A stretch of 62,811 bases of DNA from a virus (Duplodnaviria; Caudoviricetes). Position 1 is the stretch's first letter, and each line of letters opens with the position of its first letter. The stretch covers positions 1 through 62,811 of the IMG/VR virus record IMGVR_UViG_3300038393_002510, one strand, 5' to 3'. The position numbers and the translations under genes were made by a program. The notes beneath the pieces are model-generated. The model did no database searches, was not told the DNA's origin, and worked only from the letters and a program-made list of their open reading frames with translations. Shown here in pieces: positions 6,253 through 61,169 of the stretch.

Positions 6253-6843
6253 ATGACACACGACGTCACCATCCCCCGCTACATCGCGCTGTGCGGCAAC
6301 CCGGGCTCGGGCAAGAGCACCGTCCAGCAGATCCTCCGCGACAGCTACGGCGTGCAGCCGGTCGACGACGGCCACGTGATCCGCGCGATCGCCGTCGAGC
6401 ACATGGGCCTCACCTGGGACCAGGTCCGCACCCAGGAGGGCAAGCGCGAGACCGTGCATCTCGCCGGCAAGGACTGGATCGTCCGCGACCTGCTCGGCCA
6501 GATCGGCAACCAGCTCGAGGCGCTGCTCGGCCCACACGCGATGCCGTTCCTGGCTGAGCGCCTGGTCGCCGACAAGCCGGGCTCGTTCTCGTTCGGCTCC
6601 ACGCGCCGCGACCAGGGCGCCTATTTCCGGGAGCGCGGCGGCGTCGTGATCGAGATCGTCAGCCCGAACGCCCCGCCCTCCCCTTACGCGTTCGACCGCT
6701 ACGACCCGAGCGTCGTGGACGTGACGATCCAGAACGATGGCGTGAGTCTGCGTAACCTGGAGCGGGCCGTGTTCGACGCCCTGAAGGAACTCGAGGCGCG
6801 CCGCACCGAGTGGCTCTCGCGCGTGCTGCGGAAGGTCGCGTGA
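6253..6843 (+). CDS. deoxynucleoside monophosphate kinase-like P-loop protein
   Basis: IALCGNPGSGKST, RDLLGQIG, IQNDG. Confidence 0.75.
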   Translation: MTHDVTIPRYIALCGNPGSGKSTVQQILRDSYGVQPVDDGHVIRAIAVEHMGLTWDQVRTQEGKRETVHLAGKDWIVRDLLGQIGNQLEALLGPHAMPFLAERLVADKPGSFSFGSTRRDQGAYFRERGGVVIEIVSPNAPPSPYAFDRYDPSVVDVTIQNDGVSLRNLERAVFDALKELEARRTEWLSRVLRKVA

Positions 6844-6958: not shown

Positions 6959-7732
6959 ATGAGCTTCGACCTGTTCGGCAGCCCCGCGAACTGGGTGACG
7001 TCGACCAGCACCGCGATCGCCCCCTACAGCACCGCTCCCATCAAGGGCACCCGGGCGCCGCACGATCACCTCGAGGTCCGCTGCGATCACACCAACCGGC
7101 TGCTCGGCTGGCTGTCGGGCATCAACGCCCGGAAGGTGCCGGCCGACGAGCCGCTCGTGTTCATGGCCGATACCGGCGACCTGGTGATCGAGGACGAGGA
7201 CGGGGTTCACACGCAGGGCCTCGCCACCGAGGTCCGGGTCGCAGGCTTCGAGGCGACCTTCTCGCGCTACCTCGACGTCTCGGAGATCACCAACACGCTG
7301 CACCAGACGGTCCCGGAATACGCCAACCGCACCGTGCTGCCCGACAAGAAGACCTGCCGCTACGACTGGGCCGCGGCCGTGGTCGAGCCGCACGAGCACG
7401 AGGAGCTCTTCGACTTCGACAACTTCATCCCCTACGGGGTCGAGAACAAGGAGCTCGTGGACGCCGAGGCGCGCTTCCACCGGCTCGCCCGGCCCGCGGG
7501 ACTGGGCCCCTCCCCGCTCCTGAAGCCGGCGACCACGGCGCCCGCTGTCTCGACGCTGGGGCTCGCCACCAAGGCCAGCCAGGACCTCACCAAGGCGCTC
7601 ACGGGCGCGAAGGTGCCGGTCTCGGAGCTGGGGAAGACGCTCAACCAGCTCGGGGCGGCTGCCATGAAGGCCGGGACCGAGATGAACCGTGTGATCGAGC
7701 AGCAGCTCGGCAAGGCGATCCAGGGACGCTGA
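6959..7732 (+). CDS. hypothetical protein
   Basis: GAGGAGG RBS; normal codon usage. Confidence 0.7.
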   Translation: MSFDLFGSPANWVTSTSTAIAPYSTAPIKGTRAPHDHLEVRCDHTNRLLGWLSGINARKVPADEPLVFMADTGDLVIEDEDGVHTQGLATEVRVAGFEATFSRYLDVSEITNTLHQTVPEYANRTVLPDKKTCRYDWAAAVVEPHEHEELFDFDNFIPYGVENKELVDAEARFHRLARPAGLGPSPLLKPATTAPAVSTLGLATKASQDLTKALTGAKVPVSELGKTLNQLGAAAMKAGTEMNRVIEQQLGKAIQGR

Positions 7733-7983
7733 GCGAGCCTGAAGGTGACGCCCGCGCCAGCGGGCGGAAGCCGAGCGGGCTCGCGCCCCAAGGGCCAGAG
7801 CGTCGAGATCCTGAGAACCTGAGAACCGAGAGCCAAGGTCCGGGAGCCTGAGATCCGCTCGACCGTCCACCAAGGCTCAGTTCCAACTGAGCGGCTACCG
7901 TCCGCCAAGGGTCGATCTGGGGAGTGCGCGGCAACCCGTGGCATAGCCTCCGAGGGCGTGCGAAATCCCTAGGACTTCGCACT

Positions 7984-8016
7984 GTGTCCGACCCGCTACA
8001 GTGGCAGGTCGGACAC
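7984..8016. terminator. hairpin between convergent genes
   Basis: GTGTCCGACC / GGTCGGACAC 10-bp inverted repeat. Confidence 0.55.
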
Positions 8017-8021
8017 GCCCC

Positions 8022-8138
8022 TCAGTAATCGCAATCTGTGGCGAAGAAGTGACGTATGGCCCGAAGGACACGACGCTTGAAAGTGTAGTGGAGCGCGAAG
8101 GTCTCGGCGTTCATCTCGGCGATATCGGAGAGGGTCAT
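8022..8138 (-). CDS. small hypothetical protein (38 aa)
   Basis: MTLSDIAEMNAETFALHYTFKRR...; shares the leader motif found upstream of the 8948 gene. Confidence 0.45.
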   Translation of the reverse strand: MTLSDIAEMNAETFALHYTFKRRVLRAIRHFFATDCDY

Positions 8139-8251
8139 CTGTCTAACTCGCTTCTGTGTTGCTGACGATTACTTGTCGCACGCCCCCGACAGGGGGTCAA
8201 GTCACCGGTGACTTATCAACAGCGTGCGAGAAAATCGCATTAGCGCGTCGG

Positions 8252-8316
8252 TGAGACGCTTCGCGCGTCTCAGAGCTAGATCTGCTCACTGAGACGCTTC
8301 GCGCGTCTCAGTGAGC
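8252..8316 (-). terminator. two tandem hairpins downstream of the GG/CC-free gene
   Basis: TGAGACGC-TTCGC-GCGTCTCA (8252-8272) and a 14-bp perfect stem GCTCACTGAGACGC/GCGTCTCAGTGAGC (8284-8316); both are GG/CC-free. Confidence 0.7.
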
Positions 8317-8327
8317 TTGCTAGACGC

Positions 8328-8948
8328 TTAGAGCGCGACGCTCAGAGCTTTAGCTAGACGCTTCGTCGTTGCAGCGCTCAGATTGAGCGAATATGCAACT
8401 TCATTGCGTTCATCGCGCGTTTCTTTGAGAACGTCGAACATTTGCAGCGCGTTAATGCTGCTAGAGCTTTGCGTGTCAGCAGTATTCGCTGCAACAGTCT
8501 TAGCATAGCGCACGATATGTTGAGCTTTTGCAGCGTCAGCGCGCAGATCAACACACAGCGACGCTTGTGCATCTTTGTGCGTCATCGTCATGTTAGCTTT
8601 CGTGAGCTTAAGAGCAGTCAAGAAAATGCAGCGCGTGTAATTGTTGAGCGTATCAGCAGCAGCAGCAGAGCGCGCAATGTTAGCGACTTTCTGAGCGCTA
8701 TAGACGTTGAAGCGCTTGTTGCGACGCTCTTGACGATTGATAAAGTTAGCGTCGACGTTTGCGCTGTGCATAACTTTAACGACAGCTTCGTGAGAGAAAT
8801 CAATCGCGAGATTGTCGAGAGTCTTTTGAATGTTCGTGTTCTCAGCGTTGCACTCAATCTCATAAGACTTGCGAGCAGCGATCGACGTCTGAAGAGCGAC
8901 GCTGTAGTTCGCGACAGCTTCGTTCTGAGCGTTGTTGAGCTTCGTCAT
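8328..8948 (-). CDS. GG/CC-free gene; 206-aa putative winged-helix protein lacking Gly, Pro and Trp; paralog of 10253-11194
   Basis: ATG at 8948 (MTKLNNAQ...). Aligns with 10253-11194 (NIQKTL/NIHKTL, VDANFINR/VDPSFINR, FNVYSAQKVA/YNVYAVDKVA, TQSSS/TQASS, TKRL). Confidence 0.85.
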   Translation of the reverse strand: MTKLNNAQNEAVANYSVALQTSIAARKSYEIECNAENTNIQKTLDNLAIDFSHEAVVKVMHSANVDANFINRQERRNKRFNVYSAQKVANIARSAAAADTLNNYTRCIFLTALKLTKANMTMTHKDAQASLCVDLRADAAKAQHIVRYAKTVAANTADTQSSSSINALQMFDVLKETRDERNEVAYSLNLSAATTKRLAKALSVAL

Positions 8949-9249
8949 GACTGTGTCTCTCTGTGTGTGTGTTGCTGACGATTGAGAGAATACAGAGTCG
9001 GCAGATCGGCTCAAGAGCACAAAGCGAGAACAGAGCGAAAAAGTCAGCGGGAGGTGATTATTTTTGATGGGACGCACTTTCTCGTGCGGAGTGCGGAAAT
9101 GCCACTCGACGGGCGAGCGGAACTCCGTGGAGCCAGGATGGATTGTGCGCAATCGAATTGGGCACAACTCGATTGGGGTCAATTCAATTGGGGTCGATCG
9201 AATCACGCCCGATGGGCTCGGGCTCGATCGAGTCGTGCCCGACGCTTCC

Positions 9250-9490
9250 GCCCCATGGCGCCCCATGGGAGCGACCCCATGGCTACCTACCAAGCGGGGC
9301 CCCTAGCCGTTCCTAAAATCCGCAGCCGGAAGAGTCCAGCCCCACGGTGGCCCGAGGCGACCCACGGTGCCCCATGGGATCAGCCCCAGGAAGCCCCAGA
9401 ATTGGCCCAGGAGCGGCTCCATGGGTCTCGGAGCTGTCCATGGTGCTCCGGAGGCTCCCGTGGGCGTCCCTGGCGCTCCCATGGGGTTTG
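9250..9490. repeat. CCATGG/CCRYGG cluster 1
   Basis: CCATGG at 9253, 9263, 9277, 9372, 9419, 9438, 9479. Confidence 0.8.
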
Positions 9491-9503
9491 CCCGACACGA
9501 AGA

Positions 9504-9530
9504 AGGGGCAGCCCGGGATGGACTGCCCCT
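9504..9530 (-). terminator. intrinsic terminator
   Basis: AGGGGCAG/CTGCCCCT stem followed by a pyrimidine tract on the minus strand. Confidence 0.6.
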
Positions 9531-9557
9531 CGCGCTACGCGGGCGCGGTGACTGGGA

Positions 9558-9854
9558 TCAGAACTGCTCCTCGCGGAGCATCTCCTTCTGGAAGCGGGCA
9601 CGGGCGCGGAGGCGGTTGCGCTCGACGCGGGCGGTGCGGTGCGCGTAGCTCGCGGCCCGGGTCGCCTGGCCCATCGTGACGACGTTGCGCTCGGCGTCGA
9701 GGAGCTGGGAGAGGCTCAGGAGGTTCGAGCGGGCCTGGGCGGTGATCTCCCGGGCGTGGGCGCGCTGCATGTCGCGCGTCTCGGTCTGGAGGCTGTCGAG
9801 GTAGTCGGCGCACTCAGCGAAGCGACGGGCGACGGAAGCGATGAACTTGGTCAT
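9558..9854 (-). CDS. hypothetical helical protein
   Basis: Start MTKFIASVARRF at 9854. Confidence 0.7.
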   Translation of the reverse strand: MTKFIASVARRFAECADYLDSLQTETRDMQRAHAREITAQARSNLLSLSQLLDAERNVVTMGQATRAASYAHRTARVERNRLRARARFQKEMLREEQF

Positions 9855-10039
9855 GACTTGCTCTCGACTAGGTGAAGCGCTGCGCTTCGTTGTTGACGAG
9901 ACTGTTCTATCAAGTCGTGACGAGCTTGTGCGCGGAAGACCGAAGGATCTGCTTGGCGCTTTATGGGGCGGATACTTACGGGAGACGCTCTGTGGGAGCG
10001 GGGATCCCGGTATGGGCGGTCCGGGGCGCGGGGTCCGTC

Positions 10040-10200
10040 TCCCATGGGGTTCCATGGTAGGCCGTGGCCTGATGGACCAGGCCTGGCCTAGGCCTCATCC
10101 CATGGCCGGCCGTGGCGTTCGCGTGACCGTGATTCCCACCATGGCCGGCCATGGGAGCCTCTCCGACCGGAACCCCTAGCCGTTCCTGGATCCCATGGTG
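10040..10200. repeat. CCATGG/CCRYGG cluster 2
   Basis: CCATGG at 10042, 10052, 10100, 10139, 10149, 10193; CCGTGG at 10062 and 10110. Confidence 0.8.
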
Positions 10201-10212
10201 GATCCGAGCCAG

Positions 10213-10240
10213 AGAGAAAGGGAGCCTCGCGGGCTCCCCT
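10213..10240 (-). terminator. intrinsic terminator
   Basis: GGGAGCC/GGCTCCC stem followed by TTTCTCT on the minus strand. Confidence 0.65.
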
Positions 10241-10252
10241 CCCCTCTCGGTG

Positions 10253-11194
10253 TTAGGCTGCCTTCTGGAAGAGCACCTCCTCGAGCCGCTTGGTGATCGG
10301 GCTGTCCGTCAGGGTGAAGGTCGGGTTCCGCGAGGAGCCCTCCCGCTTGACGATCCCGAGGGTCTCGAGGGCCTGCATCGTGGAGCTCGCCTGGGTCGGC
10401 GCGGTCGAGGCGCTGACCGTGTGCCGGAGCAGGTGCTTGCGGATCGCGAGGTCGATGTGGTGCTTGTCGGAGGCGCAGGCCTTCGCGACCTCACCGGTGA
10501 AGGGCAGCCCCGCTTTGCGCATCTGGAAGAGCGAGACCATGCAGGCCCGGTTGATCGCGTTGGAGATCACCCCGTCGGCGATCCCCTTCACCGCGTCCGC
10601 GACCTTGTCGACCGCGTAGACGTTGTAGCGGGAGCCGTCGTGGAGCGTGCGGTTGATGAAGGAGGGGTCGACCTGGGCCGCGAGCATCACGCGGGAGGTG
10701 TCCTTCCACATCAGCGCCTTGCGGACCTTGTTGAGGGTCTTGTGGATGTTGTGGTGGCTCCCGTGCTTCTCCGTCTCGAAGGCGGAGCGGGCGTCGATCG
10801 CCGCGGTGATCCGGGCGGTCATGCCCTGGACCGCGATCTCGTCGTGGGCGTTCATCAGCTCCCGGAAGCTGCGCTGGGCGGCGTCCTCCCGCTCGACCGT
10901 CTCCTCGAGGGTCTCGGGGCTCTCGGTGGCCTGGTCCTCGAGGACCGTCTCGGTGGCCTCGTGGGCGAGGACCTCTGCCTCGGCCTCGTCGGACCGGATG
11001 TCCTCGAGGGTGGCGAGGGCGGCGTCCAGGTCCGCATCGTCCGTGAGCGTCTCGGCCGCGAAGGTCTGGGTGAGAGAGGCGGCGCGGTCCTCCCGACGCA
11101 TGTGGTCCGTGTAGTCGGAGATGTGGGCGCCGTAATCGTTGGCGGTCAGGACGGACTGGGCGGCGATCTTCTTGGAAGAGGTCTTGCGGGCCAT
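10253..11194 (-). CDS. acidic N-terminus plus putative winged-helix C-terminus; normally coded paralog of 8328-8948
   Basis: AAGGAG RBS and start MARKTSSKK; C-terminal ~190 aa align to the GG/CC-free protein. Confidence 0.85.
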   Translation of the reverse strand: MARKTSSKKIAAQSVLTANDYGAHISDYTDHMRREDRAASLTQTFAAETLTDDADLDAALATLEDIRSDEAEAEVLAHEATETVLEDQATESPETLEETVEREDAAQRSFRELMNAHDEIAVQGMTARITAAIDARSAFETEKHGSHHNIHKTLNKVRKALMWKDTSRVMLAAQVDPSFINRTLHDGSRYNVYAVDKVADAVKGIADGVISNAINRACMVSLFQMRKAGLPFTGEVAKACASDKHHIDLAIRKHLLRHTVSASTAPTQASSTMQALETLGIVKREGSSRNPTFTLTDSPITKRLEEVLFQKAA

Positions 11195-11309
11195 CTGTCG
11201 AACTCCTTGTTTCGTGAAGCACTGCGCTTCGTTTCGACAAGAATGACTATGATGATCCCACAGACCGGATGCTAATGGCGCGTCGTGGGACTTACGACAC
11301 TGCCTCAAA

Positions 11310-11655
11310 GACCATGGCCTATACGCGCGTGTGCTTTACATATGTCGGAAGAGGCCGTCCCATGGGGTGCCGCGGGCGCCCGTGGTGTTCCGAGGAGATC
11401 CGTGGGATGCCATGGGGCGGAGCCCCGCGGGTGTTCCGGGATATCCAACTCGGAAAAACGCCATCGGCCTGTATGTATATACCTACTATCTCTAATAGGT
11501 TTTAAGAACAGGCCGACGGACTTGGATATCCAACGGTCCGGGACACCCACGGGGCTTCCCATGGGAGAGGTGTAGGGACAGAGGCACCGGAACACCCGCG
11601 GGCGTGCCCCATGGGTTTCCATGGTCCGGGCCGAGAGGGGCCCCTGGCCGTTCCT
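11310..11655. repeat. CCATGG cluster 3 with a large imperfect inverted repeat around an AT-rich core
   Basis: CCATGG at 11312, 11360, 11410, 11559, 11609, 11619; arms ~11410-11472 and 11508-11564. Confidence 0.75.
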
Positions 11656-12297
11656 GATTTCGGGCTTGGAGTGTGACCGCGACCGGTCCGGGTCAAGGAC
11701 TCGCGGAGGCACCGCGTTCTCGCCGGACCGGTCGAAGCGTCAACAACACAGCCGCTCAGAGAGCAGGAGCGCCGCCTACGCGCTCGACTGATGCTGACAG
11801 AGATACCCGGTCCGCGTGTCGCTGTCATGCGGGGCACCGAGGCTGGTTTTCCCGTGGGTGTGGAGAGTGTGGGTCGCGGCCGGCCTGATGCGTTCTTCTG
11901 AGAGGCTCACTCCCCACTGACACACGCTCATGGGGCTCACCTCTCCCCTCCCCTGTCTCTCTAAGGGCTCCCTCTCCCTACGTTCTCTCACCCCTGGAGC
12001 GGTCTCTCATGGGTGTGCGTTCCTAGTGCCTTTCTCGCTAGGGGTGTCGTGTGCGTGAGGTCCCTCCCCTCTCATGGCGCATCGTGCTTCTCGCTCTAGG
12101 GATCGGGGCTCTGTGCGTGCTCTCTCTCGCTATGCTCATGTGAGCGTCCCTGTGTCGGGGGATCGCTTGAGAGCGCTGGTGAGCGTGTTCCTCAGTCTGA
12201 GATGAGCGCGTGCGCGTTCGTTCGCTGGGAGCGTCTCAGCGCGCGTTTCTGACTCTCCCGGGATTTGTCCGTTTGGATGCAAAATCGCGTTTGGGGT

Positions 12298-12346
12298 GGA
12301 CAAACACAGGACATTTACCGGACATCCGCAGGACGTTGACGGGACA
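12298..12346 (+). repeat. GGAC repeats with exact 11-bp period
   Basis: GGAC at 12298, 12309, 12320, 12331, 12342. Confidence 0.7.
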
Positions 12347-12447
12347 AACCGACCGGATCGGGCTCACGTCGTATTGGACCGGAGCAGGACATCCTGTCCG
12401 GCCTACGTCCTGCGTTTGTCCATGGCCTGCAGGCCTGCGGACCAGGC

Positions 12448-12669
12448 CTACGAGGCCTCTTCCTCTTTCAGCTCCAGGGCCCGGATGATGATCTGGTGCT
12501 GGTCCGGGAGGCCCTCGGTGAGCCGGCCGATCGAGTAGGGGCTGGCCGCTTTCTCCTCCGGGGTGTCCAGGAACGTGAGCTGGACCAGAGCCACGCTCAG
12601 CGCGTAGTCGGCCCGGCCGGGTCGTTCCTTGAAGGTCTCCAGGCAGGTGCGGATGTCGTGGGGTTCCAT
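12448..12669 (-). CDS. small hypothetical protein (paralog of 12597-12872)
   Basis: Shared PG.ADYAL and SPY.I..L..G motifs. Confidence 0.7.
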   Translation of the reverse strand: MEPHDIRTCLETFKERPGRADYALSVALVQLTFLDTPEEKAASPYSIGRLTEGLPDQHQIIIRALELKEEEAS

Positions 12670-12872
12670 GCGTCGGTCCTCAGCCTCATGGCGCGCTGGA
12701 TGAGGGCCTCGGCATTGTCGAACCCCTTCACCAGGTTTGGGATCGCGTAGGGGCTCTGGGGCCTCTGGCGAGGGGGCGTGCCAATAAGGGCTCGGAGCGC
12801 GCGACGCAACGCGTAATCCGCCAGGCCGGGGCTGCCGGTGGAGATCATCTCCCGCAGCCGCACCGGGTCCAT
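12597..12872 (-). CDS. small hypothetical protein (paralog of 12448-12669)
   Basis: Shared motifs as above. Confidence 0.7.
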   Translation of the reverse strand: MDPVRLREMISTGSPGLADYALRRALRALIGTPPRQRPQSPYAIPNLVKGFDNAEALIQRAMRLRTDAWNPTTSAPAWRPSRNDPAGPTTR

Positions 12873-12884
12873 GAGCCTTCTCCG

Positions 12885-13301
12885 TCAGTCCAGCAGGTAG
12901 ACGCCGCCGTCATAGACCGGGGTCCGGGCGCGAGGCGTCCCTGAGACGTTGCGGGTCCAGTAGCAGTGCCGCGTCACCTGCCCCTTGTGTCGGAGGCACT
13001 CATATTCCGTGACGCGTTCCGCAACCGTTACCGCGGTGCCCTTGCGTAGCATGATGCAGTGGCGCTCGCGCTCATCGACGATGGGGTCTCCGAACCTCAT
13101 CCACATGCTCTGGATCTGATCCCGCCTGCCGGCCCTGTAGGCGCCGTCCAGCTCGTCGGCGTCCAGGAAGTTCTGACAGGCCGGCTGGTCCTTCTTGAGG
13201 ATGTGCGGGCCCGGGTTGGGCACGGGGAAGGGCTTGGTCTGGGCCCAGGATGGGCTGGGGAGCACCAGGACGGCGATGAGGGAGAGGTGAGCGAGCTTCA
13301 T
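12885..13301 (-). CDS. secreted protein with Sec signal peptide
   Basis: MKLAHLSLIAVLVLPSPSWA leader; four Cys. Confidence 0.7.
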   Translation of the reverse strand: MKLAHLSLIAVLVLPSPSWAQTKPFPVPNPGPHILKKDQPACQNFLDADELDGAYRAGRRDQIQSMWMRFGDPIVDERERHCIMLRKGTAVTVAERVTEYECLRHKGQVTRHCYWTRNVSGTPRARTPVYDGGVYLLD

Positions 13302-13421
13302 GCTCTGCTCATAGCTTGGCTGTGTAGGGGCTTTCTAGCGCCCCTCAGCGCACCAGATGGCCCATGGGTCGCCATGGCCTTCGTGTGGGTCGGGGCTATG
13401 AGCCCCGGGTCTCTAGCTCCC

Positions 13422-13856
13422 TCACTTGAGGCCGAACTGGTTGATGCTCAGGATCTCGCGGTCCTTGAACACGATCTGCATCACCGCGATGCCGTCGCCG
13501 CGCCACTGGTAGGTGGAGTAGCGGGTGCCACCGATGCGGCTGTCCGAGATCAGCTCCCCCTCGCAGTCGTTCATCACCCGTCGGACGTGGCTCTTGAACT
13601 GACCGGCCTTGAGGGCTCGGAACTTCTCGTAGGTGGCCTTGCAGTCCGGCTGGAGGATATCCTCAACCGAGCCGTTGCGTCCCTGCTTGCCATCGAGCGG
13701 GTGCGGCGGCCGCTCGCCCTCATAGGCGGTCTGCTGGGTCTGGATGGCCGGCTGGGCGGTGTCGCTCGTCTTCTGCAAGAGCAGCGGGCCGACGATGATG
13801 GCCGCGACGATACCGGTGGCGGCGATCCAGAAGCCTTTGCTGTTGGGCTGGGTCAC
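13422..13856 (-). CDS. membrane-anchored protein, BLIP/DUF3862-like C-terminus
   Basis: N-terminal TM helix; GELISDS..YQW.G...IVF pattern. Confidence 0.6.
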   Translation of the reverse strand: MTQPNSKGFWIAATGIVAAIIVGPLLLQKTSDTAQPAIQTQQTAYEGERPPHPLDGKQGRNGSVEDILQPDCKATYEKFRALKAGQFKSHVRRVMNDCEGELISDSRIGGTRYSTYQWRGDGIAVMQIVFKDREILSINQFGLK

Positions 13857-18146: not shown

Positions 18147-18820
18147 CAGGCCGCTTCCTCCTCGTCGGCCTCGGCCGGAGGCGTGGTCGACAGCTCAGCG
18201 AGGTAGCGGGTCGCCTCCTCCTGCATGTGCCTCGGCAGGGCCTCGTGCAGCTTGGTGCGGATCGCGTTGAGGATCTCCCAGACCAGGCCCACGTCCGTGT
18301 GCTGGGCGCGCTCGCAGGAGACGGCGAACTCGTCGATGGTCTCGATCACGTCGGCGCAGGTGTCGCGCGCCTTGAGCAGGTCCGGGACGGTCACGCCCTC
18401 GAAGCCATGCTCCTCACTGAAGGCGCACTCGTCGCCCTCGTGGTTGATGACGTCGGTGACGTAGGGGTAGGCCTCGTCCCGGAAGTGCTGGCCGCTGCCG
18501 TCGGCCTTGCCGTCCACCACCAACTCGCGGGCGACGCCGGCCGCCTGGTCAGCGTCGGTCGCCTCCACGAATGCCTCGAAGCGGGCGTAGGCGTTGTCCT
18601 CGATCAGGACCACGCGGAACGGGGTGACGACCTCGAACTTGTCGACGCCGATGATGAGGAAGAGGCCGCGGCCGTTGTCCCACTTCACGCCGATCTGGCG
18701 CGTTTTCTCGTGGACGGAGGTGACAGTGCCCAGCGTGCCCGGCTCGATGGGGTTCGGGTCATGCGGCATCTCGATCAGGCGGATCCGCGTGCCGACCTCG
18801 GGGAGAGCTTGGTGTGTCAT
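18146..18820 (-). CDS. DUF4314-domain protein
   Basis: GTRIRLIEM.DP.PIEPGTLGTV..V....I.VKWDNG..L.LI.GVDKF. Confidence 0.8.
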   Translation of the reverse strand: MTHQALPEVGTRIRLIEMPHDPNPIEPGTLGTVTSVHEKTRQIGVKWDNGRGLFLIIGVDKFEVVTPFRVVLIEDNAYARFEAFVEATDADQAAGVARELVVDGKADGSGQHFRDEAYPYVTDVINHEGDECAFSEEHGFEGVTVPDLLKARDTCADVIETIDEFAVSCERAQHTDVGLVWEILNAIRTKLHEALPRHMQEEATRYLAELSTTPPAEADEEEAA

Positions 18821-18941
18821 CGCTGACTGACGTCCTGTGTGCGTGTTGTCGATAGCGACAACGTAGCAGCGCAGCGCGAACGTGTCGGTTGGCGTCGTGC
18901 GGCAAGTCAGTGGTGACTGATGGTAGCCGTGGAGTCAAGGC

Positions 18942-19238
18942 TCACGGATCGAGCCGGATCATGGGCGCGAACCATGGCTCCCGATGGCGCCAGCCGTTCT
19001 TCCGCACCCAGCGCACCCAGCCGGCCGGGTCCGGGTAGACGGTGTGCCCTCCCCTTCTCCCGCAGCCCGTGCAGCGCAGGCGGTGGCCGCAGGCGTCCAT
19101 GTCGAGATGGTCGGGCAGCGCCAGGTCCGCGGCACGGACCTCGGTCTCGTGCTTGCAGATCGGGCAGCGCACGGAAAGGGCGAGACCCGCCTCGCGGACC
19201 TCGCCCAGTAGGATCGGAGGAACAGGATCACGGCCCAT
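18942..19238 (-). CDS. small Zn-ribbon protein
   Basis: CPICKH...LRCTGCG. Confidence 0.65.
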   Translation of the reverse strand: MGRDPVPPILLGEVREAGLALSVRCPICKHETEVRAADLALPDHLDMDACGHRLRCTGCGRRGGHTVYPDPAGWVRWVRKNGWRHREPWFAPMIRLDP

Positions 19239-19273
19239 CCGATCAAGCTAGAGCCGAACGGATGGGGAACAAG

Positions 19274-19801
19274 TCAGGCGGCGAGCGCCATGGCCTCCAC
19301 CTCGCACAGCACCTCGGGCCAGAGGCTCGGGTGCCGATCGGCCGTGCCGTTGAGGATGGTGATCGCGGACTCGACGTGCTCACGCATCAGGCCCGTGGCG
19401 AAGCGCGGCTTCACGAAGAACGGCCGCTGCTCGGGGAGCATGTCGCAGTCGTCGTCCAGGATGCAGTAGCGGGGCGTCCTTGGGTGACGGCCGAGCCACT
19501 CACGGATCTGGCAGCCGCGCCGGGCCCGCGGGTGCTCGTTCGGCACCCAGTCTCGCGTGGTGCGCCAGTCCTCGTGAAACTGCCCCGCGAAGCCGCCGGC
19601 GATCAATCGCTCGCGCAGGCCGTCGTCGCTGCGCCAGGTCGAGGAGACGACCACCCGGCAGACCGTGGACAGACACAGCAGGTTGAGGAGCTGCATCTTC
19701 CACTCGGGGATGTAGCGCGGGTCGCGGGAGCCCCAGAGCTCCTCGCCGGACAGGATCACCCCGTCGATGTCGAGAAACAGGACGGGGTGGTCTGGCCTCA
19801 T
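19274..19801 (-). CDS. HAD-domain protein (Swiss Army Knife RNA-repair type)
   Basis: LFLDIDGV, VVSSTWR, YCILDD. Confidence 0.85.
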   Translation of the reverse strand: MRPDHPVLFLDIDGVILSGEELWGSRDPRYIPEWKMQLLNLLCLSTVCRVVVSSTWRSDDGLRERLIAGGFAGQFHEDWRTTRDWVPNEHPRARRGCQIREWLGRHPRTPRYCILDDDCDMLPEQRPFFVKPRFATGLMREHVESAITILNGTADRHPSLWPEVLCEVEAMALAA

Positions 19802-32817: not shown

Positions 32818-34515
32818 TCAGCCCTTGAGATTGCCCAGGGCGATGTGGCGCGCGAGGCTCTTGCGGCACATGCCCAGCGCCTTGTCGATCTGCCGGAGCG
32901 TGGCGCCCGCGCTGAGCATCTCCTGCGCCTTGTCGAGCTTGGCGCGATACTCGGGCGTGATCGTCTGGACCGGAGCCTCGGCGCGGCGCCCTTCCTTGAT
33001 CCGCGGGGCCGTCTTGACGTTCTGCGCCTGGGCGCTCGCCGACGGCTGCATCGGGACAGGGGAGGGCGGCGCCGGGCTCTGGGCGGGGATGTCCTCGGCC
33101 TTGGTGACGATCGCCTTGACCAGGGTGTTGTTGACCCCGAGCGAGCCGAACTGGACCGACTTCACCCGCACGCGGCTGGCGCGGCCGTCGTTCGAGACCC
33201 GCTCCACCGAATAGTCGCCGTCGGGGAGCTTGCTCGAACCCACGATCCGCACGATGTCGCCGGGCTTGGCGAGCTGCCAGGGCTCGGTGCCGGTCGGCTC
33301 GGTCTGCTGCGGGGCAGGGGAGGGGGCTGCCGTCACCGTCAGGCGATCAATCGAAACCCAGGCGCCGCTCACCAGCGCGGTGCCGCCGTCGACCGCAGCG
33401 ACCGGGACCGCCTTGCCCATGCCGTCGATCTTCACGAGCGCGTCCTTCACCAGGCCCGGCGCCACCTGCGGCTCATTCCCGGCCTGCACGTCGGTGACGG
33501 CCTGCTTGGCGTTGCGGATCGCCTTCTTGATCGTCTTCGGGTCGACCGCCTTGGGCTTCGACTTGATGACGCGCGCCTTGTTGCGCGGGGCCGTCACCTC
33601 GACCTTCTCCAGCACCTTGACCGTGTGCTCGCCCTGCCTGCCGACGAGGACCTCTTCGATCACGCCGATGTGCTGGCCGGCGATGACCTCGGCGACGACG
33701 CCCTTGGCGCCCTTCGCGGTGAGCGCCGAGCGCTTGGCCGAGACCGCCTCGTGCGAGCCCTGATCGAGCGCTGCCACGATGTGATAGGCGAGCACGCGCA
33801 TCTTGGACGACTCGTGGTGCGGGACCGCAACGACGTCCTCGGGCCGGACCTTCACGAGCAGGATGCGGTTGCCATACTGGCCGTAGGAGGCCGCGCAGAC
33901 GTGCAGGCCGGTGCCGCAGCTATCGCGGGTGTCGAGGTAGTCCTTCTTGTCCATGTAGACGCGCGAGCCGATCCGCTGGCGCACCTTCTTGGTGTGGTGA
34001 TCGACGTAGTAGCCCTCGTCGCTCGCGGCATCGAGGAACTTGTAGAGGACGAGACAGCCGTCGTCGGCGAGCGGCAGATCGACCTTCTCCATGAAGCGCA
34101 GCACCTCCTGGGCGGTGTCCTTGTGCTGCACCTTGGCGAAGCGCTCCAGGAACGCCGCGAGGCCGGGCGAGCCCTCGTAGGCCGCGCGCTCGATGTGCTC
34201 GGTGAGGGTCTGGGCGTTCTCCAGCTTGTCGCCGGCGGCCGTGGTCAGCGCGATCTTGGACACGCCGTCCTCGACCTTCTCCTCGACCTTCATGGCGCCG
34301 CCGGTCGCCTCCTGAATGATCTTCGCGAGGCTGAACTCCTCGAGGTCCACCTCGATGGGCTCGCCACCCGCGCTCGCCAGCGGCAGCAGCACCGCCTTGA
34401 GCAGATCGCCGGTGCGCCAGGAGTCCTGGCCGTAGACCGCGCTCTGCCCGGTCGGGAAGAAGAGGGTGATGCCGTTCTTCGACGCGATGGCGCCGGATAC
34501 CTTCGTGAGTGCCAT
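32818..34515 (-). CDS. rIIB: rIIB-like protein with C-terminal HTH
   Basis: LPLADDGCLVLYK, SCGTGLHV, LVKVRPEDVVAVP, KMRV..Y; directly follows rIIA. Confidence 0.85.
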   Translation of the reverse strand: MALTKVSGAIASKNGITLFFPTGQSAVYGQDSWRTGDLLKAVLLPLASAGGEPIEVDLEEFSLAKIIQEATGGAMKVEEKVEDGVSKIALTTAAGDKLENAQTLTEHIERAAYEGSPGLAAFLERFAKVQHKDTAQEVLRFMEKVDLPLADDGCLVLYKFLDAASDEGYYVDHHTKKVRQRIGSRVYMDKKDYLDTRDSCGTGLHVCAASYGQYGNRILLVKVRPEDVVAVPHHESSKMRVLAYHIVAALDQGSHEAVSAKRSALTAKGAKGVVAEVIAGQHIGVIEEVLVGRQGEHTVKVLEKVEVTAPRNKARVIKSKPKAVDPKTIKKAIRNAKQAVTDVQAGNEPQVAPGLVKDALVKIDGMGKAVPVAAVDGGTALVSGAWVSIDRLTVTAAPSPAPQQTEPTGTEPWQLAKPGDIVRIVGSSKLPDGDYSVERVSNDGRASRVRVKSVQFGSLGVNNTLVKAIVTKAEDIPAQSPAPPSPVPMQPSASAQAQNVKTAPRIKEGRRAEAPVQTITPEYRAKLDKAQEMLSAGATLRQIDKALGMCRKSLARHIALGNLKG

Positions 34516-36920
34516 TACCGTGAGGTCTCCTTGCTGCGGGCAGCGTGGCGCTTCGCCAGCTCCTCGGTGAGGTGGATGAAGTCGTCGAGCTGGTCGCCCG
34601 CGAGCCCGGACGGGTTCACGTTGAGGTTCGCCAGCAGTTCGAGGTGGTCGGTGCGCAACCACCAGCGCTCGGAGCCGAAGGTCCGGGCTTCGAGAGGCAT
34701 CGCGAGTTCGCGGTATTCCTCATAGTAGCGCTGGATGAGCGCCTGCTCGTCCGCGTCCATGTGCTGCCCGCGGACGTGCCGCTGATGGAAGACGAGCCGG
34801 GCCAGCATCCAGAGTTCGTAGGCCTGGTCGCGGTCGGCGCTCTGCTTGTAGGGCTCGCGCACGGCCGCGTGAGCGATCCGCCGGCTGGTCCGCATCATCT
34901 TGGATGAGAAGCCGGTCCTGCGCCCGTCGTCGCTGCCGTCGAGCGCCCGGACAGCCATCCGGGCGTAGAAGGCCTCGTAGGGCTTCGGCCGCTTGGTGCG
35001 CGCCCGCAGCTTCTCCAGGATGATCTCCTCGATCCGCCGGACGCCCTGCGCCTCATACCACTCGAAGCGCTCGCGCTTCGTCGCCACCGCGACCCGGCCG
35101 ATGAGCTTGCGCGCCAGGTTCGCGCGCAGCGCCTCGTGCATCGTGTCGTGGATCACCAGCGCCGGCTGGCTGTCGTTCGTCGTGCCCCTGGCCGTGAACA
35201 CGGCGTCCGGTGTGAAGAACTTCTGGGAGCGGTTGAGCGTCCGGACGTCGTGGCACGGCCCGTCCGCCGGGATGAAGCGGCGCGGCGTGTGGCCGGAGAT
35301 CCCGAACAGCAGTGGGAACTCAGGGGTCTCGGGGCCGTAGAAGCGCGGCGCCTCCTTCTTCTCCCGCTTGACCTTGGGCGGCGCTGCGACCTCGTCGACC
35401 TTCACCTTGTAGTGCGCGGCCCGCGCCTTCAGCGCGTCGATCTCGGCCGGCGGCAGCCGGGCCGTGGAGATCGCGAAGCCGTCGTTCATGTTGTCGGAGA
35501 TGAGCTTCTGGGTCGGCGCCAGGGTGATGCGCGGCTCGAAAAGCCGATGGTGGTAGAAGGGGTAGGCGTCGGGCGACTTGATGCCCTTCAGCCGCGCGCT
35601 GCTGTGGTCTCGGGTGAGCAGCAGGCCGGCGAGCGGGCCGGCCACACGGACGATGCGCTTGCGCAGGCGGAAGTAGCGCTCGGCGATCAGGTCGTTGGTG
35701 AGCGCGTCGCCACCGCGAACGCTGTAGGAGTATGAGTTGCACTGCGGGAGCAGGTTCTTGAGCGAGCGCCGGCTGTCCGAGAAGCGCTGGACCGCCTTGA
35801 GGACGAAGTCGCGCCGGGAATACTGCCCCTCGCGCACCCAGAACCGGGCCCGGTCCATCGCGATGGCGTCGGGGCCGACGAAGTCCTGACCGCTGGTCCA
35901 GACCAGGTTGCGCTTGTCGCGGTGCAGGTGCAGCGTGTCGCGGGTGAGCTTGTCCATCAGCTCGCCCAGCGCGATGTCGCGCTTGCCAGGCATCGCCGCC
36001 TCAATCTCGCGGATCGCGTTGTCGAGGAGCTTGCCGATCACCTCGACCGTGATCTCGTCGTAGGACAGGCTCTCGCGGCTCGGCGTCACGCCGATGGTCG
36101 AGGGCTGCGCGTAGAAGACGATGGGCGCCGAGCCCCGGCCGACGAGTTCCTTGATGCGCTCCATCCTGAGGTGGAGGCTCGGGTTGCTGTCGATCGGGTA
36201 GATGACGTTGGCGTAGAGGAGCCTCAGCCGGTTGGAGCTCTGGTTGGCAATGCTCCCGAAGACGCCGTAGCCGACCTCCTTGAGCCCCGTGAAGTCCGGG
36301 GCCTCCAGCGTCGCGCCGTTGAGGCGCACGTTCATGCCGCCCTCGCGCACGATCTCCTTGATGCAGCGCTCGATCTTGGAGTGCATGCCGGGCGCGAGCG
36401 GGATCGAGACCTTCAAGCCCCGGGCGTCCGTCGGCACCTTCATCATGCGCTTGGCGGACGGGCAGTCGTCCTCTTCCGGGTCGCTCGCGACCATCGCGTA
36501 GAGCGACTTGGTGCCGGCGTGGTTGCTCTCGACCGTGAAGTGATCGGTGATCGAGAAGGGCGCCTTGCACCCTAAGCCGAAGCCGCCGGTGACGCGCTTG
36601 TCCTTGGCCTTCTGAGAGCCGAACAGCGTGCAGTAGATCTCCACGATCTTCTCGTGGGGAATGCCGTTGCCGGAGTCGGCGACGATCATCTCGTCTTCGG
36701 TCAGCGTGACATCGACCGGCTCGTCGGGGAGCCCGGCCTCGATGTTGGCGTCGACCGCGTTGCAGATGACCTCGCGGACGGTGGCGCGCTCTTTGTCCCG
36801 ATAGAGCGTATCGGACATGATCTTGAACGCAGCCGCGGACGCCGCGACTTGGAATTTTGCAGCTTTCTCGCCGCCGATGGCGACAAAGCTGTCGCTCTCG
36901 TTGATGTGGGTTACTTGCAT
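34515..36920 (-). CDS. rIIA: rIIA-like protein with GHKL/HATPase N-terminus
   Basis: LY....VRE.ICNAVDA, D.GNGI, GGFGLGCKAPFS, TPSRESLSY. Confidence 0.88.
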   Translation of the reverse strand: MQVTHINESDSFVAIGGEKAAKFQVAASAAAFKIMSDTLYRDKERATVREVICNAVDANIEAGLPDEPVDVTLTEDEMIVADSGNGIPHEKIVEIYCTLFGSQKAKDKRVTGGFGLGCKAPFSITDHFTVESNHAGTKSLYAMVASDPEEDDCPSAKRMMKVPTDARGLKVSIPLAPGMHSKIERCIKEIVREGGMNVRLNGATLEAPDFTGLKEVGYGVFGSIANQSSNRLRLLYANVIYPIDSNPSLHLRMERIKELVGRGSAPIVFYAQPSTIGVTPSRESLSYDEITVEVIGKLLDNAIREIEAAMPGKRDIALGELMDKLTRDTLHLHRDKRNLVWTSGQDFVGPDAIAMDRARFWVREGQYSRRDFVLKAVQRFSDSRRSLKNLLPQCNSYSYSVRGGDALTNDLIAERYFRLRKRIVRVAGPLAGLLLTRDHSSARLKGIKSPDAYPFYHHRLFEPRITLAPTQKLISDNMNDGFAISTARLPPAEIDALKARAAHYKVKVDEVAAPPKVKREKKEAPRFYGPETPEFPLLFGISGHTPRRFIPADGPCHDVRTLNRSQKFFTPDAVFTARGTTNDSQPALVIHDTMHEALRANLARKLIGRVAVATKRERFEWYEAQGVRRIEEIILEKLRARTKRPKPYEAFYARMAVRALDGSDDGRRTGFSSKMMRTSRRIAHAAVREPYKQSADRDQAYELWMLARLVFHQRHVRGQHMDADEQALIQRYYEEYRELAMPLEARTFGSERWWLRTDHLELLANLNVNPSGLAGDQLDDFIHLTEELAKRHAARSKETSR

Positions 36921-37003
36921 TCGTCCTGCTCTGTGTGCGTTTGCGTTCGCAATACTGTTTATAGTCTTGCGAACGCGGGTTGTCTCAGTCAGCGCTGACT
37001 TAT

Positions 37004-37606
37004 TTAATGGAGGCTCGAGGACGCCCGCTCCTGGGCGTTCTTCTCCAGCCAGTTGACGATGACCTCGCAAGCGCCCTCGACCCGGGTCTGAAGGTCCGTG
37101 GCCGTGATCCGCACCATCGTCGGGCCGCGGAGCATCTGGGCGGCGCCTTCCATCAGCCAGTGGGTGTGCCACTGGTAGGCGGCGTTGGCCGGCGCCTTGC
37201 CGTCGGCGACCTGGTAGCTCCCGAGCGGGACCGGGATGAAGATGATGGCGAAGGTCTGGTTGGCGAGCGTCAGCGCCTTCTCGCAGTAGAGCCGGATCCG
37301 CTCACCCTGCTCGGGCGTGGTCGCGTGCATGCCGACCTCGGCCATCATGTAGCCGACGAGGTCGATGGGCGTGCGGTCGACGAGGCTCTGCCGGGGCAGG
37401 GCGTCCATGATCTCGGCGTAGCGCTTCAGATAGAACTCCTGCGCCTCGATCCGCTGCTCGATCGGCAGGTTGCCGATGTTCTCGAAGCCGCCCTCGGCCA
37501 TGATCTCGGCGGTCTTCATCTCGTGGTAGTTGAAGCCGAGGTTCTCGGCGCAGAGGCGCGCGAGGGTGCTCTTCCCGGTCCTGGATGCTCCTGTGAAGCC
37601 GATCAC
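37004..37606 (-). CDS. P-loop nucleotide kinase (AAA_28/dTMP kinase-like)
   Basis: IGFTGASRTGKSTLA, VDRTPID. Confidence 0.8.
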   Translation of the reverse strand: MIGFTGASRTGKSTLARLCAENLGFNYHEMKTAEIMAEGGFENIGNLPIEQRIEAQEFYLKRYAEIMDALPRQSLVDRTPIDLVGYMMAEVGMHATTPEQGERIRLYCEKALTLANQTFAIIFIPVPLGSYQVADGKAPANAAYQWHTHWLMEGAAQMLRGPTMVRITATDLQTRVEGACEVIVNWLEKNAQERASSSLH

Positions 37607-60855: not shown

Positions 60856-60863
60856 GTTGAGGA

Positions 60864-61169
60864 TCAGCCTTCCAGGGCGCGCCAGTTGATGATGCGGACG
60901 TTCTTGAGCTGCTTCTGCTCGGTGATGACCTGCTCGACCTTCAGCAGGGCATCGAGGGTGCGCAGGTCGGCGAGACCGTCGACCCACATGCGGTCATGGC
61001 GATCGAAGCCGTCGGCGTCCTCGTGGACGAAGGCCACGAACGTGCGCCGGGGCGGGGTTTCGATGGGCTGGCCCGGCTGCACCGGCTCCAGGGTCTCGGC
61101 TTCGGCGCGCGCCTTGGCGGCGTCGAGGCGCTGCTGACGCCGGTTCGTCTTCGGGGTCTCGTCGGTCAT
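60864..61169 (-). CDS. hypothetical protein
   Basis: GAGG RBS; start MTDETPK. Confidence 0.65.
   Translation of the reverse strand: MTDETPKTNRRQQRLDAAKARAEAETLEPVQPGQPIETPPRRTFVAFVHEDADGFDRHDRMWVDGLADLRTLDALLKVEQVITEQKQLKNVRIINWRALEG

Follow-up and report, generated by a model that had tools for sequence, protein, structure and literature searches.

A single expression unit of a phage-plasmid contains no GG or CC on either strand, and the gene that it carries, gene A, has a normally coded paralog, gene B, a short distance upstream. That an expression unit has lost the commonest dinucleotide entirely points very strongly to selection. The loss is conserved across related elements, and its reversal in one lineage places the constraint on the nucleic acid and not on the protein. 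Our preferred reading, to which we assign a probability of roughly one in three, makes A a site-free "starter" copy, out of reach of a factor that reads GG/CC.

A GG/CC-free unit in a phage-plasmid

The DNA analyzed is a stretch of 62,811 nt, here called the window, and all coordinates are given in its numbering. Judging by its protein matches to 10 Rhizobium phages and 5 plasmids, the window is part of an alphaproteobacterial phage-plasmid of ∼115 to 120 kb belonging to the RHEph10/pLM21S1/B1VFA group, with which it has in common the A/B pair, ParA, ParB-like genes, a helicase, DnaE, RecA, RNR, and gene order. Complete relatives measure 116.8 to 117.7 kb; the window is 56% complete, with the structural genes and RepC outside the portion read, and carries no end repeats. 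In the accessible portions of the papers describing the group, its members occur as circular plasmids of ∼117 kb that carry RepC or as virions whose DNA has terminal repeats, and neither the purged unit nor the A/B pair is mentioned there (PMC12509600; PMC4447125). The terminal repeats measure 3,605 bp in B1VFA and 3,939 bp in V1VFA-S (PMC12509600).

The GG/CC-free stretch covers positions 8251 to 9000 on both strands, a total of 750 bp with a G+C content of ∼50% in a window of ∼67% G+C, and the runner-up gap in the window is 91 bp long. No strand-symmetric dinucleotide pair is more frequent in the window than GG/CC (11,380 occurrences in 62,811 nt), and the absence of GG/CC from this stretch goes far beyond chance, as ∼96 occurrences are expected from the base composition of the stretch itself and none of 2,000 shuffles contained fewer than 70. 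When the A protein was back-translated 5,000 times with the codon usage of the window, occurrences averaged 79.7 and never fell below 57, against the 0 observed; the purge exceeds the effects of both chance and amino acid composition. General avoidance of palindromes within the unit was considered as well and is ruled out, since GTCGAC, CGATCG, GCGCGC, and AGATCT are all present.

With no GG or CC on either strand, the encoded protein is forced to do without glycine (GGN), proline (CCN), and tryptophan (TGG). Gene A (8331 to 8948, minus strand; stop codon at 8328 to 8330) encodes 206 amino acids, none of which is one of these three. The original prediction held that the loss of glycine and proline was driven by the DNA, and two features of the unit confirm that it is imposed at the level of the nucleic acid: GCC is the top alanine codon of the window (333 of 703), yet it accounts for none of the 37 alanine codons of A, and GG and CC are also absent from codon junctions, leader, and terminators.

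Gene B and the A/B duplication

Gene B (10256 to 11194, minus strand; whole open reading frame 10253 to 11194) encodes 313 amino acids and starts with an ATG preceded by an AAGGAG ribosome site, while the ribosome site of A is of a GAGAGA type and not GGAGG. Its stop lies 1,305 nt upstream of the start of A, in agreement with the paralog predicted ∼1.3 kb away. A BLASTP comparison of the two proteins returned 65 identities in 201 positions (32%) and 53% positives at an E value of 5e-26, spanning residues 3 to 202 of A and 112 to 308 of B, and every sequence string on which the proposed paralogy had been based falls within this alignment. The three replacements that had been named are also found, with P177, P266, and G280 of B corresponding to A67, D158, and D172 of A, as is the acidic N-terminal extension of B (∼110 amino acids), whose first 110 residues include 27 Asp and Glu against 10 Lys and Arg.

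A family phylogeny, built from 51 A sequences and 40 of 120 B sequences, separates A and B into two clean clades on opposite sides of a single branch with an SH-aLRT support of 100, which indicates that a single ancient duplication of a phage-plasmid gene gave rise to both. The replacement of glycine and proline extends across the family. Twelve aligned columns hold Gly or Pro in at least 60% of 30 B-type rows and Ala, Ser, Asn, Asp, Glu, or Arg in 23 A-type rows, and the position of G286 in B is Gly in all 30 B rows and Arg in all 23 A rows. Gly, Pro, and Trp were entirely absent from 34 of 51 A homologs, and Trp was absent from all 51; these three residues together made up at least 5.4% of each of the 120 B homologs among the matches listed. 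A search of representative sequences gave 501 relatives, with the best 150 of them listed. B-type proteins average 8.2% Gly, Pro, and Trp. The fold accepts Gly and Pro, as had been proposed, and the purge is therefore not a property of the protein.

The product of both genes looks mostly helical, with a C terminus resembling a winged helix-turn-helix, and for this reason A and B probably bind DNA. The resemblance is faint in sequence searches: HTH_IclR matched residues 166 to 203 of A at an E value of 0.1, below the cut-off, and AbiEi_3, HFX_2341_N, and DUF4423 gave weak Pfam matches in one or two of 53 family members. An ESM Atlas model of B reached TM scores of 0.31 to 0.36 to winged-helix-containing proteins; the A and B profiles had no sequence match in the PDB. 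Against DUF6387, A scored 16.3 bits (E value of 0.0077), short of the gathering cut-off of 28.9 bits, and 3 of the 53 family members matched this domain at an E value of 0.05 or less (best, 0.0014). Searches of A and B against Pfam, PHROGs, and NCBIfam otherwise gave nothing usable, and PADLOC found no match for either protein.

Layout of the A unit and its surroundings

Gene A appears to sit in a self-contained expression unit made up of a promoter of host type, a GG-less ribosome site, the 206 codons, and two strong hairpins. The candidate promoter, TTGAGC-N16-TATTCT (8987 to 9014, minus strand), is proposed from the sequence and its conservation across loci: TTGnnC-N16-TATTCT recurs in four related loci (L010, L011, L013, and L018), and the B1VFA group has TTGnnC-N16-TAAAGT as its counterpart. 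A consensus promoter scan of positions 7700 to 12500 called no sigma-70 sites, this one included. The last CC upstream of A lies inside the promoter spacer, at 9000/9001. On the other side, the unit is closed by two minus-strand hairpins with GCGAAGC loops (8284 to 8316 and 8252 to 8272), which have a predicted folding energy of −48.6 kcal/mol (z score of −4.2; none of 200 shuffles was equally stable), and the first CC beyond the unit occurs 3 nt past the second hairpin.

Between A and B lies a small helical open reading frame of normal composition (9561 to 9854, minus strand; 98 amino acids), whose leader has a hairpin motif in common with the leader of B. An array of CCATGG and CCCATGGG boxes is located directly upstream of the A unit (9253 to 9484) and includes 7 CCATGG, some at 10-bp spacing; a second CCATGG array precedes the 98-amino-acid open reading frame (10042 to 10198), and a third precedes B (11312 to 11624). 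The third array flanks an AT-rich island (11465 to 11515) inside the inverted repeat CGGCCTGT / ACAGGCCG. In total, 22 of the 29 CCATGG and all 8 CCCATGGG of the window fall between 9250 and 13400, and CCATGG clusters near A and B in relatives also (25 of 36 in G002, 17 of 31 in G003, and 13 of 27 in the M. oryzae plasmid). The candidate promoter of B, behind the CCATGG box arrays, is CATTCT with no recognizable −35 element. As read from these motifs, the promoter of A appears better than that of B, which is the only hint as to the order of expression.

Just downstream of the A unit lies gene C (MTLSDIAEMNAE...; 8022 to 8138, minus strand; 38 amino acids), which has its own promoter-like site and, in the window, a normal composition with 20 GG/CC in 179 nt. 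Gene C falls within the purged zone of G003 and G002, and beyond the zone in the window and beside the purge-less unit in L011, which indicates that the zone tracks the unit and not a gene family. An Rfam search of positions 7600 to 13500 gave nothing usable.

Conservation of the purge and its loss in one lineage

The same purged unit surrounds the A gene in 17 of 20 related elements, at A-protein identities of only 30 to 80%. Across these 20 elements, whose DNA was examined, the purged zones are 0.5 to 2.4 kb long and contain between 0 and 34 GG/CC each; where a host is named, it belongs to Rhizobium, Sinorhizobium, Shinella, Methylobacterium, or Faunimonas. When 13 zones were pooled (13,790 nt), CC and GG each had an odds ratio of 0.01, compared with 1.76 for CG and 1.84 for GC. 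Scans of two complete genomes and of the initial 100 kb of B1VFA each turned up one purged zone and no more. In RHEph10, the A-like open reading frame is without annotation, and two genes on the opposite strand are annotated instead.

Of 16 A coding sequences, 5 tolerate single GG/CC, and one site is therefore not fatal. In G002, 26 of the 33 residual sites are ACC or GGT (19 sense ACC and 7 sense GGT), and GCC is used for none of 87 alanine codons; the strand symmetry of these sites suggests that something reads the sequence on double-stranded DNA. The zones of L012, L015, and L020 run 95 to 466 nt upstream of the ATG, past the likely promoter. An apparent sense-strand signal among residual sites (39 CC against 17 GG) was rejected because ordinary codon usage explains the excess, the core of B having 68 CC against 52 GG with NCC codons preferred.

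The purge was lost once, in a lineage comprising L011 and the M. oryzae plasmid, neither of which has a zone. The A gene of this lineage contains 71 GG/CC in 609 nt and uses GCC for 21 of 38 alanine codons, while its protein keeps to 2 Gly, 1 Pro, and no Trp and its ribosome site is still GAGAGA. The return of synonymous GCC and ACC codons in a gene whose product is still nearly free of Gly, Pro, and Trp shows that the constraint acts on the nucleic acid and not on the protein. When the gene content of the purge-less M. oryzae plasmid was compared with that of G002, G003, B1VFA, and the window, 29 open reading frames were unique to the plasmid and ∼50 from G003 were missing there. Two differences were consistent, namely that the plasmid has lost rIIA/rIIB and has acquired two generic SAM methyltransferases, and we rejected both as pointers to the agent, given that a single purge-less genome is available for the comparison (n = 1).

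What the purge might evade

We consider evasion the likeliest reason for the purge. A reader of short GG/CC-containing words, for which a frequent-cutting or nicking nuclease or a blocking or silencing protein would be candidates, would be active at the time when A must be made. Ordinary genes, which carry one such word every 5 to 6 nt, would be unable to work at that time, and A would serve as the site-free starter. B would be the regular copy, with better chemistry (Gly, Pro, and the acidic N-terminal extension) behind a weaker, box-flanked promoter, and would take over after the factor has been dealt with. An agent that cuts DNA would also destroy the rest of the genome, with its site every 5 to 6 nt, unless that DNA were absent from the cell, protected, or repaired. 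In addition, the CC inside the A promoter spacer, found in the window and in several relatives, sits where a cut would disable the unit, and a constraint linked to transcription or acting at the RNA level therefore fits better than plain DNA cleavage. It is possible, if on balance doubtful, that these phage-plasmids live with a hitherto undescribed factor that discriminates nucleic acid by GG/CC with a third-base nuance (ACC/GGT being tolerated in one lineage), and it might be encoded by the host or by the element. We found nothing with GG/CC specificity among nucleases, silencers, or modification enzymes.

The elements themselves appear to be in the habit of escaping sequence readers by removing sites. 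GTAC is absent from all four genomes in which it was counted, against 86 to 184 sites expected, and several 6-bp palindromes have likewise been removed genome-wide, a pattern typical of DNA that faces restriction enzymes without protective modification. This bears directly on the proposal in the original prediction that A works from modified incoming DNA, which was not supported: genes for C5 or N4/N6 methyltransferases or TGT/DpdA were missing from all five records (4 of them complete genomes) in a search that covered PF00145, PF01555, and PF01702 and that matched in control genomes, and we found no evidence, in the form of base-modification genes, for modified or hypermodified virion DNA. 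A bulky modification of GG/CC that hinders the host RNA polymerase, such that A is read from incoming DNA and B after replication, would explain why one purged unit coexists with a retained normal paralog, and a dNMP kinase (6253 to 6840; phrog_139, E value of 5.5e-18) is encoded 1.4 kb away, but removing GTAC and the palindromes genome-wide would be unnecessary if the DNA were modified, and we judge this explanation to be very unlikely. A weaker point in the same direction is that B1VFA and V1VFA-S were sequenced from an Illumina library made by enzymatic fragmentation with no problem reported (PMC12509600).

Evasion might instead operate on RNA, with the transcript kept free of GG/CC to escape an endoribonuclease or an RNA-modifying defense, for instance a host abortive-infection toxin or a phage shut-off RNase acting on GG/CC, so that the A messenger survives the destruction of others. 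We regard this as unlikely, albeit with several observations in its favor: in the window the zone reaches ∼20 to 30 nt beyond the presumed start site on the upstream side and stops directly after the terminator hairpins, the CC of the spacer is tolerated where the promoter is not transcribed, the ribosome site avoids GGAGG even in the purge-less lineage, and relatives encode an RtcB-type RNA ligase (B1VFA_017), an enzyme that repairs RNA cut by such toxins. A single RNA reader, however, would not need both GG and CC to be missing from the same strand, the residual sites of G002 show strand symmetry, with ACC accompanied by its complement GGT, and the zone of L012, L015, and L020 reaches past the likely promoter. 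That same overrun of the A transcript in several loci weighs against local hypermutation, in which a CC-specific cytosine deaminase would act on DNA opened by strong transcription and convert every CC, as well as every GG through the other strand, and only a protein independent of Gly, Pro, and Trp would have survived. The overlap of zone and transcription unit, the drop in G+C from 67% to 50%, a uracil-DNA-glycosylase domain on the DNA polymerase, and the partly transition-like replacements (Gly by Asp or Asn, Pro by Ser or Ala) would all suit such a process, but the enrichment of CG and GC is far greater than a mere loss of C and G would leave, and changes from Pro to Ala and Pro to Asp require transversions, which makes it a distinctly improbable cause. 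We give equally little credence to self-avoidance, by which A and B would bind CCWWGG-type boxes and coat or silence their neighbors while the starter gene is kept free of half-sites against its own product. The boxes do crowd around A and B, partly 10 bp apart, with similar clustering in the relatives, and in G003 the first box begins 1 nt past the end of the zone; a box of 6 to 8 bp, however, could be avoided without removing every GG and CC, and the purge-less lineage retains its boxes. Least probable of all, and close to negligible, is avoidance of a protospacer-adjacent motif, which would keep a CC-PAM (type I-F) or NGG-PAM (Cas9) CRISPR-Cas system from targeting or silencing the unit. 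Such CC/GG-PAM systems are not known to be common in Rhizobium, cutting at any other position would be fatal to the element all the same, and GG/CC outside the unit occurs at 0.17 to 0.18 per nt in the window, G002, and G003, which is not the picture of a PAM-depleted genome. A third-base nuance such as the tolerance of ACC would suit a PAM reader, and genome-wide CC depletion, with lower G+C content, is described as an escape from type I-F systems in Pseudomonas aeruginosa phages in the accessible part of the source (PMC12174588).

Relation to known systems and implications

The purge resembles restriction-site avoidance in phage and plasmid genomes, in which a short DNA word is removed because it is read, and the same elements purge GTAC and 6-bp palindromes. 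It differs in that the word is the commonest dinucleotide, the removal is confined to one expression unit, and the cost is three amino acids; moreover, we know of no cognate enzyme for GG/CC. In work by Davison and Brunel from 1979, T5 mutants that gained an EcoRI site in the first-step-transfer region reportedly became restricted. Recognition sites in the first-step-transfer region of T5 and BF23 and in the leading early region of T7 affect sensitivity, according to the accessible part of the source (PMC10644984). If A is a starter copy, it would be like these regions in that a small part of the genome must work before protection is up. The A unit is nevertheless flanked by ordinary DNA on both sides, unlike the first-step-transfer region, and to our knowledge two-step injection has no precedent in phages of the RHEph10/pLM21S1/B1VFA group.

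Genes kept free of a short word are also familiar from ACA-less genes, whose messengers survive sequence-specific mRNA interferases such as MazF. The A unit is similar in this respect but lacks both the word and its complement, with strand-symmetric residual sites, and we are aware of no GG- or CC-specific RNase of the MazF kind. The CC depletion of P. aeruginosa phages, as far as the accessible part of that report goes, involves the same dinucleotide and a reduced G+C content, but it is mild and genome-wide, whereas the purge of the A unit is total and confined to 0.75 to 2.4 kb. Full-text searches of the literature for GG-free, CC-free, or dinucleotide-free genes, or for the absence of GG/CC in phages, returned no description, and no described mechanism could be tied to the purge.

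The purge has persisted while the proteins diverged down to 30% identity. The rewriting of one copy without GG or CC suggests that some factor in infected cells acts on the GG/CC word. The B paralog provides a built-in control and the purge-less lineage a second one, and with both at hand the identity of the GG/CC reader, its timing, and the nucleic acid on which it works become testable, with Rhizobium phage B1VFA on R. leguminosarum VF39SM as a harmless laboratory system. The A family is also a source of natural proteins of ∼200 residues that fold without Gly, Pro, or Trp, along with matched normal relatives. If the undescribed GG/CC-discriminating factor exists, it would be strong enough to force a regulator gene to do without three amino acids, backed by a normal paralog, and dispensable enough for one lineage to have lost it. 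In that case, the purged unit would be a genomic footprint of a new kind of immunity or takeover, whose recognition word would be shorter than any other known.

Relationship of the element to known phage-plasmids

The proteins encoded by the GG/CC-free gene (gene A) and its normally coded paralog (gene B) have matches in Rhizobium phages (B1VFA, V1VFA-S, RHph_X66, and the RHEph10 set) and in plasmids of Methylobacterium, Shinella, Rhizobium, and Sinorhizobium that are circular and 116.8-119.4 kb in size. Published descriptions present the group as phage-plasmids or plasmid-like prophages that carry RepC, ParA, and ParB and form siphophage virions with 3.6-3.9-kb terminal repeats (PMC12509600; PMC4447125); neither text speaks of the A/B pair or of a dinucleotide anomaly, and full-text literature searches found no published description of a GG/CC-free unit. 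The 62,811-bp IMG/VR virus record (estimated 56% complete, ∼67% G+C) is otherwise consistent with the group, encoding ParB-like proteins, a helicase, a dNMP kinase, rIIA/rIIB homologs, ThyX, a class II RNR, SbcCD, RecA, FEN, a gp32-like protein, and a DnaE with a UDG domain. The last is a DNA polymerase III alpha subunit (57454-60987, minus strand) whose C terminus holds a domain of the uracil-DNA-glycosylase superfamily (PF03167, E 6e-9). The rIIB-like and rIIA-like genes (32821-37172, minus strand; phrog_2886, 2.8e-67; phrog_2979, 1.9e-98) have homologs in B1VFA and in the related genomes G002 and G003 and are missing from the M. oryzae plasmid. A 94-nt tRNA-Arg(gcg) called by ARAGORN inside the rIIB-like ORF (33335-33428, minus strand) is probably a false call. 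Between the thyX-like and RNR genes, a low-G+C island (40221-40805, plus strand; ∼40 to 55%) carrying a 194-aa ORF with a signal-peptide-like start looks like a foreign insertion.

An expression unit purged of GG and CC

No other strand-symmetric dinucleotide pair occurs as often in the window as GG/CC (11,380 times), and this pair is absent from both strands over 750 bp (8251-9000) enclosing gene A (8331-8948, minus strand, 206 aa); the next longest such stretch measures 91 bp. The base composition of the stretch predicts 96 occurrences, every one of 2000 shuffles held at least 70, and back-translation of the fixed A protein with window codon usage averaged 79.7 over 5000 draws, with no draw below 57. 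Alanine in A is encoded by GCT (24), GCG (7), and GCA (6) and never by GCC, which accounts for 333 of the 703 alanine codons in the window, and the codon junctions, leader, and terminators are likewise free of GG/CC. At one end, the stretch stops within the spacer of TTGAGC-N16-TATTCT (8987-9014), a promoter-like site that is recognized by its conservation in relatives and was not called by a consensus promoter scan; at the other, it runs 3 nt past the second hairpin of a pair (8284-8316 and 8252-8272; −48.6 kcal/mol, z −4.2). The ribosome site of A is GAGAGA-like. This purge is real, highly nonrandom, and conserved. Generic palindrome avoidance was rejected as its cause, given that several GC-rich palindromes occur in the unit. 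The second most depleted spot of the window, with a single GG/CC in 163 nt (46621-46783), falls in GCG- and CGC-rich coding sequence of an SbcC/Rad50-like gene.

Gene B (10256-11194, minus strand, 313 aa) begins with an ATG behind AAGGAG, and A starts 1305 nt downstream of its stop. Residues 3-202 of A align with residues 112-308 of B at 32% identity (BLASTP, E 5e-26), which bears out the paralogy originally predicted, and a search of the record itself returned exactly these two copies. The extra acidic N terminus attributed to B is also present, as an extension of ∼110 residues with 27 D+E versus 10 K+R. Searches of curated families, solved structures, and named clusters gave no match for either protein; the C terminus (T-x3-QSSSS-INAL..., then a short hairpin-like segment) gave winged-helix family matches that were all subthreshold.

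Among 51 A-type proteins (41-100% identity to A), 34 contain no G, P, or W and the remainder only 1-5 such residues in total, with W absent from all 51. G+P+W averages 8.2% in B-type proteins, with a minimum of 5.4% (120 listed of 193 found). Within the C-terminal 195 residues, the counts were bimodal across 112 further representatives among the profile search matches listed: four have none, the next 3 and 6, and the rest from 9 to at least 20. At 12 aligned columns where G or P is conserved in B, A carries A, S, N, D, E, or R, and G286 of B is Arg in all 23 A rows. A tree of the 51 A-type and 40 sampled B-type proteins, the latter trimmed to their last 205 residues, separates the two types by a single branch (SH-aLRT 100), meaning that the pair goes back to a single duplication and that the purge belongs to the A side. 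Nearly all loci with long enough flanks have a B-type gene within a few kilobases of A, in either orientation.

Conservation and plasticity of the purged zone

We compared the DNA of 20 distinct elements with an A-type gene, merging duplicates (L013 with L024, L015 with L016, L010 within G002, L012 within G003) and leaving out L022, where only a B-like gene occurs; B1VFA, V1VFA-S, and X66 are closely related and so not independent within the 20. A zone free or nearly free of GG/CC surrounds the A gene in 17 elements, with free runs of, for example, 851 bp in B1VFA, 1279 bp in V1VFA-S, 432 and 336 bp in X66, 549, 424, and 159 bp in RHEph10, 1531 and 151 bp in G003, 1334 bp in pLM21S1, 724 and 151 bp in Shinella, and 455-1373 bp in metagenomic loci. 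G002, one of the 17, is relaxed (34 sites over 2.4 kb); L021, at a contig end, is intermediate (152-213 bp), and L011 and the M. oryzae plasmid, which are of the same lineage, have no such zone at the A gene. Tabulated for 16 loci (without L014), the A coding sequences contain no GG/CC in 11 and 1, 1, 2, 5, and 6 in the other five. G002 and G003 each have a single such zone, as do the first 100 kb of B1VFA. Pooled odds ratios over 13 zones (13,790 nt) are 0.01 for both CC and GG, 1.76 for CG, and 1.84 for GC, and G+C is held as high as the GG/CC ban permits.

The neighboring small gene C (MTLxDIAEMNA...) lies with its promoter within the zone in G003 and G002, and outside it with ordinary composition in the window (8022-8138, minus strand) and L011. 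Its first 13 residues are identical in the window, L012 (5961-6341), and L010 (6235-6930), its length being 38 aa in the first and 126 and 231 aa, GG/CC-free, in the other two. Other small ORFs are carried within the zone in V1VFA-S, L015, L017, L019, and L020. The zone grows and shrinks over neighboring genes and is not bound to one gene family. The purged zone of RHEph10 (10835-11983) contains a minus-strand 204-aa ORF (11196-11810) with an N terminus like that of A-type proteins; the record gives two plus-strand genes there instead, gp097 and gp098, probably a strand error.

Box arrays lie upstream of both genes. Within 9250-13400 fall 22 of the 29 CCATGG and all 8 CCCATGGG sites of the window, in arrays partly at 10-bp spacing upstream of A, of a small ORF (9561-9854), and of B. 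The clustering is kept in Methylobacterium relatives; it recurs in the M. oryzae plasmid, G002, and G003, and B1VFA has CCWWGG-like variants. Two of the arrays upstream of B flank an AT-rich island of 35 nt (11465-11515). The island, bounded by an inverted repeat (CGGCCTGT / ACAGGCCG), looks origin-like or like a large hairpin. The arrays resemble operator or origin-like sites at which a DNA-binding protein, perhaps A and B themselves, would act; a separate RepC is present in relatives, so the role of plasmid initiator does not fall to A and B.

Nature of the constraint and a possible role for the two copies

The original prediction held that the loss of G and P looks DNA driven; that it is imposed on the nucleic acid is supported, since the normally coded paralog B is a valid internal control and synonymous sites are restored in the M. 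oryzae lineage. The A gene of that plasmid has 71 GG/CC in 609 nt, with GCC at 21 of 38 alanine and ACC at 10 of 17 threonine codons, and its protein, 68% identical to A of the window, is nonetheless limited to 2 G, 1 P, and 0 W. Synonymous sites are thus back at the genomic norm, and the protein keeps the imprint of the purge; the constraint therefore acts on nucleic acid and can be lifted. ACC and its complement GGT make up 26 of the 33 residual sites analyzed in G002, read on the sense strand as 19 ACC and 7 GGT, and GCC serves 0 of 87 alanine codons versus ACC at 7 of 38 threonine codons. This third-base nuance, alike on both strands, does not fit a bulk physical property and points to a macromolecule reading double-stranded DNA. 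The M. oryzae plasmid also carries defense-like insertions (7593-10309 and 18160-19449), encoding a TcmP partner protein with a GMT-wHTH domain, a DUF5131 (Gp37/Gp68) protein, and a HEPN/Toprim-associated protein, and two generic SAM methyltransferases (97505-99297).

The best-supported reading, to which we give a probability of only about 35%, is that A would be a site-free starter copy escaping a GG/CC-reading factor, with B as the regular copy beside it. A version in which the evasion operates at the RNA level ranks second and seems unlikely. Several points speak against simple DNA cutting: CC is present in the A promoter spacer of the window and several relatives, some coding sequences tolerate single sites, and the remaining genome is full of them. 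PAM avoidance was also considered and does not account for a purge confined to one unit.

The original proposal that A works from modified incoming DNA found no support: C5 or N4/N6 methyltransferases and the TGT family were found in 0 of 5 records searched, and GTAC is purged lineage-wide, with 0 sites versus 86-184 expected in all four genomes (the window, G002, G003, and B1VFA 1-100 kb). Certain 6-bp palindromes have been removed too, in sets that differ by lineage (CAGCTG, TGATCA, and ATCGAT in the window; GTCGAC, GACGTC, and CCCGGG in G002; CTCGAG in G003). Together these losses argue that the DNA of these elements meets nucleases unmodified, and because the loss of GTAC is common to elements across host genera, the elements themselves may bring along a GTAC reader.
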